A stretch of 64,000 nt of DNA, taken from Gemmatimonadales bacterium. GTDB lineage: Bacteria > Gemmatimonadota > Gemmatimonadetes > Gemmatimonadales > GWC2-71-9. The DNA is taken from assembly GCA_041613315.1 (NCBI GenBank), contig JBFJHJ010000014.1, positions 1 to 64,000 of the forward strand, given 5' to 3'. The position numbers are program-made. Within the stretch, counting starts at the first letter, position 1. The number at the start of each line of letters is the position of its first letter. Positions 49,901-52,900 of this stretch are shown piece after piece.

Positions 49901-52900
49901 ACGCATATTGCCAAACCCGCCCTAGCGCGACGGACCCGAGCGAGGTGTTGGACGATGGCGTGGAGAGTGATCGAGGCTGGTGAGGAAGTCTGGCATGTGC
50001 AACCCGCCGCCGAAATGCGCCCCGACGTGCGAATGTGGCGGCTGATGCTCTCCTTTCGCGCGCAAGCCAGTTCCCGCGAGCGTGAATCGTTCTGGGCGCC
50101 CTACCCGCTCGAGTCGAGCTCGAAGTCCTCGCTGTTCCAAGCCGCGGACCGTATCTCGAACGACGCCCTGAAGGAAGTCCTCGCACAACATCTCGGCTGA
50201 GCGTCAGGGCGCCGCGTGTCCGTCACACCCGTTCAGGATCTGCGACGCATCGCCGAGGCCGTGGAGCAGCTCCACGGGCGCACCGTCCACGACGTCGAGA
50301 TCCGCTCCGACTGTCGGGTGCTGCGGGTGCTGCTCACCGACGGCGAGCAGCTCCTGGTGTCGGTGGTGGTCGACGATACCGGGAAGCCGCGGCTGGACAT
50401 CGATCTACTGCACGCGGTAGACGACGCGGCGGCGCAGGGGCAACTCGAGGTCCGGTTCCAGGACCTCGACTAGCGGGTGGCACGGAGGCGGCATGACGGT
50501 GGGCGCTCCTCGGCGCGAACGCGTCCGGTTTCTCGAGTTCGAGTTCAACCGTCTTCCGAGCGGGCGCTGCCGGTCACGGGTGGTGCTGGAGCGCCACGCC
50601 GGCGAGAGCTTCGTCGGCACGGCGGAGGGGTTGGGCTCCCAGGCGGGTGAGCTGCGCTGCGCGGCGCAGGCCGCGGCGAAGGCGCTCGAACGCGCGGTGG
50701 ACAACAAGCTCACCTTCGAGCTGCTGGGAGTAAAGGCGGTGCGCGCCTTCGATGCCATGGTGGTGATCGTGTCGCTGTCGTGTCACAACGGGACACCGCC
50801 GACGCGACTCGTGGGGTCCTGCCTCTCGGAGCATGACCACCACCGGTGTGCGGCGCTGGCGGTGCTGAATGCCACGAACCGGCTCCTCGGCAACATGATC
50901 TTCATGCGGTAGCGACGATGGCAACCAGGATGTATCGAGACATGTGGCGCATGGTGGTCGCGACGACCGGTGTCGCGGTCGCCGCCGCCTGTGCCGGCGG
51001 GGCCCACGACGCGGCCCTGGCGCCGGCGGGCGGGGGCATGGCCGTGCTCGGCGATTCCATCGGGCTGGACGCCGCCTGGCCCGTCACGCCCGAGGACTCC
51101 GCCGCGGACGAGGCCGCGCTGCTCGCCATCCAGGCGCTCGAGTTCAAGAGCCTCGCCAAGGGTGCAGAGCACGTTCGCGGGATCGTCTCGGCGCCGGCGA
51201 CTCTGTCGCACGATGCCGTCACGGGCGTGCTGCGGCTGGGAGACGGCCCCCGTGGAGGAGCGGCCAGCGCGTCGGGGCCGAACTACGACATCGACGTCGA
51301 GTCGTTCCTCGACCACGACCGCGTTCAGTACTACATCGACTATTTCCTCGACCCCACCCGCGAGCGCTTCGAGATCTGGCTGGGGCGCCTCGTGCGCTAC
51401 GAGGGCATGATTCGCGCGCGGTTCCGGGCGCTGGGCGTCCCCGAGGACATGGTGTATCTCGGGATCATCGAGAGCGGCTACTCGAACACCGCGGTGTCCC
51501 GCGCGAGCGCCGTCGGCATGTGGCAGTTCATTGCGTCTACGGCCCGCCGCTACGGCCTCATCGTCGACCAGTGGGTGGACGAACGCCGCGACCCGTTCAA
51601 GGCGACCGACGCCGCCGGCCGGTATCTGGCGGACCTGAACCGACAGTTCGGGTCGTGGTACCTTGCTGCCGCTGCGTACAACGGCGGGGAGGGCCGGGTG
51701 TCCCGCGGGATTCGCCGCCTCGCCGGCGATCCGGACTCGCTCACCGACGAGACGTTCTTCCACCTCGCGGAGCGGCGCTACCTGCGACGCGAGACGCGGG
51801 ACTATGTGCCGAAGCTGATCGCGGCGGCGCTCATCGCGAAGGACCCGGTCCGCTTCGGTTTCGACAGCGTCCCCGAACTCCAGCCGCTGGTCTTCGACGA
51901 GATCACCGTGCCCGACGCCACGGGGCTCGACGTCATCGCGCGGCTGGCGGACACGACGACCGGGGCGCTCGTGGAGCTGAACCCGCACCTCGTGCGGCGC
52001 GTGTCCCCCCCAGGGCGCCCGTCCATCGTCCGCGTGCCGCGCGGCACCGGGCCCCTCGTGGCCCGACGCTACGTGGACCTCCCGGAGAGCGAGCGCGTGA
52101 ACTTCGTCGAGCACGTGGTGCGGCGGGGTGAGACGCTCTCGGAGATCGGACGGCGCTACCGCGTGGGCGTGATGCTGCTCCGCGCGGCCAACGGGAATGT
52201 CGACCCGCGCCGGTTGCGGATCGGGCAGCGCCTCATCATCCCGCTGAGCGTCGACGGCCGGGAACGGGCGGTGTCGGGGCGTGCCCCGGCGCCCGCTCCG
52301 GGCGTGCCCGGCGTGACGTATCACATCGTGCGCCGCGGGGAGTCGCTCTGGGCGATCTCGCGCCGCTACGGGATCGGTGTCAACGACCTGCAGCGCTGGA
52401 ACGGGATTGGCGCAAGCGAGGTGCTACGGGTCGGCCGGCGGCTACGGGTGGCTCCGCCGGGATAAGCGTGACGAAAAGGAGGGGCGCGCCGGGCGCGGCC
52501 CCCCCTTCGTCCTCACTGCAGTCCCGGATAGTCCTTCATGATCCTCGACGCATAACCATTGCGCGGATCCTTCCCCGCATCCATCAGGTTCTTCAGACGG
52601 GTCGGCCCGCGGTTGTAGGCCAACAGGGCCAGGTTCACGTCGCCGTACACCTCGATCAGATCCCGCAGGTAACGGAACCCGATCTGCAGGTTCGTCGTCG
52701 GATCAAAGAGACGCTCGGGCGTGATACTCGGCTCGTAGAACCGCGCCGTGGCGGGAATGACCTGTGCCAGGCCCAGCGCACCGGCCGAGCTGCGCGCCCG
52801 CGGGTAGAACCGGCTTTCGAGATTCACCAGGCGGAACGCCAACTCCGGCTCGATGCCTTCCCGGAGCGCGACGTCGTAAATCAATCCCGCCAAGTCGCCC

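Follow-up and report, generated by a model that had tools for sequence, protein, structure and literature searches.

Free LeuA-regulatory-like domains in Gemmatimonadales have a rebuilt leucine pocket and relatives linked to c-di-GMP enzymes

Introduction

The regulatory domain of isopropylmalate synthase (LeuA) and citramalate synthase (CimA) (PF08502; PDB 3FIG, 3F6G) adopts a (beta3-alpha)2 fold and, in the literature searched (main texts, few subscription papers among them), is known only as an amino-acid feedback site on these two enzymes. In LeuA, the carboxylate of leucine is held at the start of helix 1. According to the available portion of PMC2704214, the leucine site of M. tuberculosis LeuA is lined by L535, A536, V551, Y554, A565 and A567, and G531, G533 and A536 are positions where mutation abolished feedback in yeast. 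The other described systems that bear on the present locus are the MASE9-HD-GYP phosphodiesterases, such as T. maritima TM1467 and S. venezuelae HdgA. Both the MASE9 membrane domain and the hdgA-hdgB operon have been described, with no mention of a LeuA-like protein, a leader RNA or a micro-protein in the portions of these accounts that were available (bioRxiv 10.1101/2021.11.05.467447; PMC6205966).

The gene g1221 lies in a 64,000-nucleotide window, the whole stretch of DNA analyzed here, at the start of contig JBFJHJ010000014.1 of a Gemmatimonadales genome (GCA_041613315.1). A genome-wide survey's note had described its product and three paralogs as LeuA/CimA allosteric domains without a catalytic part, and had proposed them as free amino-acid sensors. 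The results presented below delineate a large enzyme-free family with a rebuilt leucine loop that is found repeatedly beside c-di-GMP enzymes in several phyla. Unlike the LeuA/CimA regulatory domain, g1221 has no catalytic domain and does not depend on a DRE-TIM catalytic domain, and its relatives are fused to GGDEF or to a cassette-specific N-terminal domain. Two-domain relatives of g1221 adjoin the MASE9-HD-GYP genes, whereas g1221 itself does not lie in such a locus. In agreement with the note, no description of enzyme-free LeuA-like proteins was found in the literature searched.

Results

A widespread family of stand-alone domains

The protein encoded by g1221 (P0001), whose C-terminal end reads AALAVLNATNRLLGNMIFMR, was used as query in a tblastn search of its own genome (assembly of 2.63 Mb, 82.9% complete). 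The search returned exactly three paralogs, at 45-50% identity and with E-values of 1e-30 to 2e-20, the following match having an E-value of 0.28, and profile searches in all six frames identified no fifth copy of the domain in this genome. The four stand-alone paralogs reported in the survey are hence confirmed (Table 1). The two paralogs on contig C22 stand in tandem. Among 1998 candidate proteins of similar length, 1851 matched g1221, and the short family comprises 1809 clusters at 50% identity; source names, where given, read 'hypothetical', and several of these proteins come from Gemmatimonadales. Likewise, an ESM Atlas search with P0001 and with one two-domain relative returned only 'hypothetical protein' clusters. 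The conservation across relatives that had been claimed also holds, with the family matched in 117 of 151 genomes of the phylum and in all 72 genomes of the bacterial family, tallies that take in the unpublished genomes G055 and G095. The best match falls within the range of the short forms (E<=1e-26) in 67 of these 72 genomes.

Table 1. Coordinates of g1221, its paralogs and the features around it (contig C22 or C42 is named where a feature lies outside the window).
Feature	Position	Strand	Basis
Weak sigma-54-like site upstream of g1219, 9/12 consensus positions	49897..49912	+	Not above chance
g1219, conserved 81-aa protein, family unknown, first gene of conserved run	49955..50200	+	In 29/30 best loci
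g1220, conserved 85-aa protein, family unknown, C-terminal Q[LIF][ED]Vx[FL] tail	50216..50473	+	In 22/30 best loci
g1221 / P0001, stand-alone LeuA/CimA-regulatory-like (beta3-alpha)2 domain, 139 aa	50493..50912	+	ORF, homologues, Pfam, model, fold searches
MltD-like lytic transglycosylase (slt), SLT + 2 LysM	50918..52465	+	Pfam; start codon inferred
g1221 paralog, 136 aa	C22:37062-37472	-	tblastn
g1221 paralog, 145 aa	C22:36599-37036	-	tblastn
g1221 paralog, 140 aa	C42:17937-18359	+	tblastn

Relationship to the LeuA/CimA regulatory domain

The predicted structure of g1221 (pLDDT 94.7) presents its strands and helices in (beta3-alpha)2 order. A Foldseek search with this model yielded seven matches at E<=1e-3, all of them to M. 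tuberculosis LeuA; the survey had placed L. interrogans CimA within the same limit, and here the LeuA part of that statement stands while CimA is reached only at 3.9e-3. When the model was compared with 48,161 chains using VIA-align, the top rank went to the CimA regulatory domain (Z 9.8, rmsd 2.9 over 110 aligned residues), followed by LeuA (Z 8.1) and then by the next chain at Z 6.8, and the similarity to CimA and LeuA extends over the whole chain. Chains of dsRBD and HPF/RaiA proteins stood midway down the lists from the fold searches, at Z 5-6.7, the dsRBD matches covering half of the domain only and not exceeding Z 6.7. The Pfam model LeuA_dimer (PF08502) matched P0001 over residues 9-132 with an E-value of 0.13 and 12.6 bits, below its gathering cut-off of 24.9 bits; two paralogs scored 12.9-13.5 bits and one gave no match. 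Across the family, 48 of 147 members matched this model at E<=0.5, the best at 5e-6, and one two-domain relative, named 'alpha-isopropylmalate synthase regulatory domain-containing protein' in RefSeq, exceeded the cut-off with 26.3 bits. The earlier statement that the family is missed by Pfam is thus correct as regards the cut-off, and has to be qualified by this weak but full-length similarity and by the relative that passes; for NCBIfam it is confirmed, with no match at E<=0.1 for any of the four paralogs. The C-terminal helix A-x-x-A-x-L-x-A-x-N-[RK] is also common to the g1221 family and the LeuA/CimA domain.

Given the fold ranking, the Pfam matches below the cut-off and the two-domain relative above it, the g1221 family is likely to be homologous to the LeuA/CimA regulatory domain, and the fold, kinship and stand-alone state put forward in the survey are supported by Pfam, the model, Foldseek, VIA-align and the six-frame searches. 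PDB sequence searches with the queries A1 and A2 gave no match at E<0.05, and a comparison of the family with four LeuA domains using hhalign gave a probability of 2%, from a shallow profile that makes the value uninformative. An ESMFold2 prediction of a g1221 homodimer scored 0.33, against a mark of 0.42, and is evidence neither way. A quick maximum-likelihood tree was computed from 97 sampled rows and 125 columns, the GGDEF fusions being left out. In it, short forms, forms with a degenerate N-terminal domain and two-domain forms grouped together apart from LeuA/CimA with an SH-aLRT support of 100, the inner order of the tree not being resolved. By the tests run, g1221 is homologous to the LeuA/CimA allosteric domains without counting among their functional members.

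The leucine pocket of LeuA is rebuilt

The region of the leucine site was compared in an alignment that combined 125 short members with 25 longer forms, whose N-terminal domain is mostly degenerate, and with 80 domains of two-domain loci; 15 LeuA/CimA domains of related genomes served as the enzyme set, and one further region was dropped because it gave no ORF. A PDB alignment places G531-A536 of M. tuberculosis LeuA in the motif GNGPLA, which immediately follows strand 3. The segment between strand 3 and helix 1, counted up to residue 60, comprises 20 residues in 119 of the 125 short forms and in every one of the 25 degenerate and 80 two-domain forms, against 12, 9 or 7 in the 15 enzyme domains. 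The resulting 8-residue insertion lengthens helix 1 at the GNGP leucine loop and displaces the Gly-Pro loop from the start of that helix in the same 119 short members. The GP pair itself is present in all 15 enzymes, in 10 of the 125 short forms and in 39 of the 80 two-domain forms, and just one short and one two-domain form have I, V or L after it. Since helix 1 spans residues 50 to 68 in the model of g1221, the positions matching P534-A536 of LeuA would lie mid-helix. The beta4-beta5 loop, which in LeuA carries A565 and A567, is a tight AFD turn in the g1221 family and appears to be 2-4 residues shorter, in a register set by eye. The leucine pocket of LeuA is rebuilt in the g1221 family; a different ligand might conceivably be bound at the same LeuA-type interface.

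The spread of the family is also independent of leuA. A LeuA scoring over the TIGR00973 cut-off is encoded in 31 of the 72 genomes of the bacterial family, and ten of the 72, all of them carrying the g1221 family, have no DRE-TIM match at E<=1e-10. The own genome (82.9% complete) gave no HMGL-like or LeuA match, and no LeuA-type synthase gene is present in the annotated loci of the g1221 family.

Two-domain and GGDEF-fused relatives

The survey had cautioned that weaker relatives in longer frames may be fused to other domains, and this is what was found. The weak matches to g1221 are proteins of 200-320 residues with an additional conserved N-terminal domain of 70 residues, in which H, KQ, VR, ES and S-x-A are invariant. 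Judging by record titles, this two-domain form occurs in Gemmatimonadota, Bacillota, Actinomycetota, Armatimonadota, Chloroflexota, Sumerlaeota and Zixiibacteriota; of 557 matches, the best 80 were confirmed. Its gene is present, mostly in single copy, in 65 of the 72 genomes of the bacterial family. A model of the N-terminal domain, based on 10 sequences, shows an alpha-beta-beta-alpha-beta unit with tied matches at Z 6-7.9, so that none of the tied candidates (CDF C-terminal domains, the acyl-CoA ligase C-domain, EscJ and BolA-like folds) was assigned.

On the 3' side of the two-domain gene, a gap of about 200-560 bases is followed by a MASE9-HD-GYP gene and often by DUF5317. When MASE9 was taken as the anchor in 251 Bacillota genomes, 24 of the 30 best loci had the two-domain gene just upstream of it. 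Upstream of the two-domain gene itself lies hpf in many Bacillota and Coriobacteriia, a FeS-GGDEF cyclase gene directly adjacent in Gemmatimonadales (loci L061, L065, L079, L092, L181-L184, L191 and L208) or, within a further family of that order, a sigma-54 activator. In Armatimonadota, where 32 of 81 genomes match the domain, 21 of the 44 matches listed lie in frames longer than 400 residues, and all eight of these 21 long ORFs that were checked encode CBS-CBS-GGDEF diguanylate cyclases ending in the LeuA-like domain. The domain is linked or fused to c-di-GMP enzymes in several phyla. A narrower, alignment-based fusion search had missed these real fusions and returned three proteins that look mis-started or frameshifted, one of them joined to slt. 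Across forms, the N-terminal domain follows a gradient from full to degenerate to absent, and at one locus (L093) a full and a degenerate two-domain gene stand in tandem. As the two-domain form is the more widespread and the inner order of the tree is not resolved, the short forms would appear to have lost the N-terminal domain, the direction being suggested by distribution.

An AGCGRA leader in the two-domain cassette

The gap 3' of the two-domain gene contains at least two AGCGRA motifs in 60 of the 73 loci with 300 bases or more, vs. 0/73 in the antisense and 1/78 in the upstream control, and it encodes a hydrophobic micro-protein of 22-30 residues. In 39 of 55 single-sequence folds, the motif is predicted to lie in the loop of a hairpin, with stems that differ in sequence and a mean z of -1.2; no consensus pairing emerged from RNAalifold when 23 leaders were aligned with MAFFT, so that the hairpin rests on these single-sequence folds. 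Rfam yielded no leader match at gathering score in 20 loci and none at E<=1 when the gaps of 7 loci were searched, and the literature searched holds no description of the AGCGRA leader or of DUF5317. A strict leader pattern was absent from five genomes in which the gene abuts secA, but the same pattern also missed three of five known leader genomes, which makes its absence uninformative.

A micro-protein was called in 11 of 29 Actinomycetota MASE9 loci. In all six genomes with three or more AGCGRA motifs a two-domain gene is present, divergently oriented on the same contig, while none was found in the three genomes without the motif; of the other two loci, one is truncated where its contig stops, and in the other the gene stands at its usual position. 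CsrA was considered as the leader binder and rejected, since it occurs in none of the six motif-bearing genomes. The two-domain protein is the best candidate for binding the leader, through its N-terminal domain, and this assignment is a lead only, as the co-occurring genomes are related and of unknown completeness.

Gene neighborhood and conserved residues of the short forms

In the window, slt starts 5 bases past the stop codon of g1221 (start codon inferred). It is the steadiest neighbor of g1221, lying directly downstream in all 30 best loci, and the link recurs in another family of the order and in other orders of the class. The full order g1219-g1220-g1221-slt is kept in 21 of the 30, so that its conservation is stronger than the survey had claimed. 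Neither g1219 nor g1220 was found at a locus outside their own family; g1219 has no Pfam or NCBIfam match, and g1220 none over cut-off. The C-terminal tail of g1220 is kept in 26 of 27 homologues. The possibility that g1219 and g1220 represent a split version of the N-terminal domain of two-domain relatives was rejected (hhalign probability of 0.8% for g1220 against that domain).

Within the 125 short forms, R10 is kept in 114, R55 in 108, K81 in 103, F86 in 115, D87 in 112, R118 in 89, N129 in 122 and R130 in 120. K81, F86 and D87, kept in 103-115 of the short forms, are retained in only 24-25 of the 80 two-domain forms, which points to a site that the short forms have of their own. The RAFD sequence of the short forms resembles the RxxD motif of known c-di-GMP receptors, but two-domain forms do not retain its Arg, and no known c-di-GMP motif extends across all forms. 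PilZ, GGDEF I-site, MshEN and BldD families are absent from the Pfam and fold matches listed. In the own genome, an RxGG[DE]EF motif occurs in 5 ORFs and HD-GYP motifs occur in 3. A PAS-GGDEF-EAL gene directly follows one short paralog (L188), a run of response-regulator, Hpt and histidine-kinase genes has the C42 paralog as its last member, and a signaling gene is near about 7 of the 18 annotated short or degenerate loci that lack slt, as counted by eye and with no background rate. The gene adjoining g1221 itself is the lytic transglycosylase, not a c-di-GMP gene.

Discussion

The rebuilt pocket, together with relatives that lie in or beside c-di-GMP proteins, makes g1221 more likely to be a module of the c-di-GMP network than an amino-acid sensor. 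We give close to an even chance to the proposal that the free domain is a soluble docking or nucleotide-sensing module of c-di-GMP signaling. Under this proposal, g1221 and its three paralogs would be free, enzyme-less versions of a LeuA-regulatory-like domain whose role in a wide bacterial family lies in c-di-GMP signaling. The domain would presumably dimerize as in LeuA, and the N-terminal domain of the two-domain protein may bind the leader. Having probably lost that N-terminal domain and kept a conserved surface of their own (the eight residues listed above), the short forms would most likely act in trans, either as a soluble c-di-GMP receptor or as an adaptor docking cyclases, phosphodiesterases or other signaling proteins. 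A more specific version, in which the LeuA fold is itself the c-di-GMP sensor, gating an RNA-binding N-terminal domain, built into CBS-GGDEF proteins and free, in multiple copies, in Gemmatimonadota, with g1221 as the core orthologue, appears doubtful; here the N-terminal domain would read AGCGRA in the leader of the micro-protein/MASE9-HD-GYP operon and thereby close a feedback loop. Were the domain to bind c-di-GMP or to dock on c-di-GMP enzymes, it would constitute a new class of receptor or adaptor, and the unexplained MASE9-HD-GYP cassette would gain a candidate regulator with a defined RNA target.

The survey's own proposal of a free amino-acid sensor, taken here as a homodimer that would bind Leu, Ile or Val at its interface and signal to a partner, is favored by the closest solved folds being Leu- and Ile-binding domains and by an isolated, engineered CimA domain that works as an Ile sensor, as stated in the available part of PMC13381585. 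In 14 of the 30 best loci, the 1.5 kb upstream also include an IlvE-like aminotransferase class IV gene, yet it is missing from this window and from loci of other families. The proposal is weakened by the displaced leucine loop with its scarcity of GP[IVL], by a family present in 72 of 72 genomes irrespective of leuA and never beside a LeuA-type synthase gene in annotated loci, and by fused relatives that work in c-di-GMP signaling; we regard it as unlikely, and proteins like g1221 should not be annotated as leucine sensors. Homology would also fit a detached subunit conferring feedback on a LeuA/CimA enzyme devoid of its own domain, in the manner of IlvN or HisZ, and some genomes of the family do encode shorter DRE-TIM enzymes whose match to the LeuA model is confined to positions 1-360 or 2-379. 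Yet all 31 LeuA proteins over the cut-off span the whole model, and neither the ten genomes without a DRE-TIM match nor the own genome, at 82.9% completeness, offers such a partner, which leaves this reading with a very slim chance. The short form could also be a decoy that heterodimerizes with the two-domain regulator and damps control through the AGCGRA leader. The frequent presence of both forms in the same bacterial family, the gradient of N-terminal domains and the tandem genes of L093 speak for it; the separate conservation of K81, F86 and D87 speaks against it, as does genome G125 (single contig, 95% complete), which has four short copies and no two-domain gene. With the query used, no cassette phosphodiesterase was found in G125 or in the own genome (82.9% complete), where the two-domain gene was not found either. 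Judging from G125, the short forms do not need the cassette, and a decoy role is improbable.

Slightly less probable again is that the domain consists of two dsRBD-like beta3-alpha units and that the short forms are free post-transcriptional regulators. The middle-ranking dsRBD and HPF/RaiA chains, several conserved Arg and Lys residues and the tie of the family to an RNA motif would agree with RNA binding, but the median net charge is about +1 and the invariant basic residues of the two-domain protein sit in the N-terminal domain that short forms lack. Moreover, AGCGRA occurs at most once in the 120 bases before or the 200 bases after a short gene, and paired motifs show no enrichment against a reversed-pattern control in 73 genomes of the bacterial family; a genome-wide AGCGRA regulon for the short forms was rejected on this absence of motif clusters and enrichment. 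An operon-specific role outside c-di-GMP signaling, finally, would have g1221 dock on g1220 (e.g. on its QLEVRF tail) or on g1219, or couple a cytoplasmic signal to MltD expression. The constancy of slt across the class and the kept tail of g1220 favor such a role, which is nonetheless unlikely: g1219 and g1220 are confined to their own family's loci, and the three paralogs of g1221 do not have g1219, g1220 or slt as neighbors. Direct contact with MltD is also unlikely, because MltD-type proteins are exported. Control of the g1219-g1221-slt operon by sigma-54 was rejected, the sites in the window being weak or misplaced; when scored against the sigma-54 consensus, 0.26 sites per 900 bases are expected by chance at the level of the site upstream of g1219. 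Better sites, with 10-11 of 12 positions, lie directly upstream of the short gene in eight loci, all of one genus and counted with the unpublished G055, and would be in line with an operon-specific role there.

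A repeat-bearing leader and a micro-protein follow the two-domain gene

Within the cassette, the two-domain gene (an additional N-terminal domain joined to the LeuA-like domain) is followed by a gap and then by the MASE9-HD-GYP and DUF5317 genes. The leader in these gaps (loci L057-L136) carries AGCGRAGCGG repeats and is predicted to fold into a hairpin whose loop contains UAGCGR, a placement obtained for 39 of 55 leaders in single-sequence folds. At least two AGCGRA instances were identified in 60 of the 73 gap loci, versus none of the 73 on the antisense strand. Judged by eye, a long inverted repeat with a T-run encloses the leader region in many loci. 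Rfam returned no match for the leader, either at the gathering score (20 loci) or at E<=1 (gaps of seven loci). The gaps also encode an unannotated hydrophobic micro-protein of 22-30 aa, often terminating in AGGAxFxW.

In the Actinomycetota, the two-domain gene is divergent (inverted), still sharing a contig with the motif-bearing leader in 6/6 cases (L247, L256, L257, L258, L265, L270); it was found in none of the three Actinomycetota genomes whose micro-protein loci are without the motif (L255, L264, L272). Elsewhere the two-domain gene lies directly 5' of secA, in Moorella and two other Bacillota (L064, L081, L084, L089, L098, L103), with leader, micro-protein and HD-GYP gene all absent between the two; hpf lies upstream of the two-domain gene in the secA-adjoining loci checked.

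Features identified in the window and in related loci
Feature	Position	Strand	Description
Leader and micro-protein gaps	3' of two-domain gene, L057-L136 (e.g. L063:4633-4848, L069:4606-4858)		
Inserted run upstream of conserved genes	window 43855-49883		flavoprotein disulphide reductase, VTT (TVP38-like) membrane protein, DUF547, GT2 glycosyltransferase, DUF2064
g1220	window 50216-50473		
Second, small SLT-domain gene	window 52513-53223	-	converges on MltD-like gene

Domain variants and associated GGDEF proteins

Family members P0189-P0274 (~210 aa) form a subfamily with a degenerate N-terminal domain, in which the helix-strand pattern is kept and the PKQxVRxIES and DHxKIS motifs are lost (hhalign E 0.002, probability 15%). 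The LeuA-like domain is also carried at the C-terminus of CBS-CBS-GGDEF proteins (L244, L293, L304, L306, L308-L311). By match position, five genomes have a long-frame match ~5 kb from the two-domain gene. A diguanylate cyclase with Fe-hydrogenase-like and FeS domains, directly upstream of the two-domain gene in L061, L065, L079, L092, L181-L184, L191 and L208, may feed a redox or gas signal into the cassette.

Surroundings of the short gene

Eight loci, all from a single genus (L008, L012, L021, L022, L028, L030, L032 and, from unpublished genome G055, L016), present a near-consensus sigma-54 site 30-80 bases 5' of the start of the short gene's domain, and share a CTCAGTTCGC...GCGG motif downstream, before slt. 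The Q[LIF][ED]Vx[FL] tail that ends g1220, conserved in 26/27 homologues, may resemble a beta-clamp or other docking peptide. Of 30 loci, roughly 14 have a DUF2064 gene adjoining g1219, and the convergent pair of small SLT-domain and MltD-like genes recurs in relatives.
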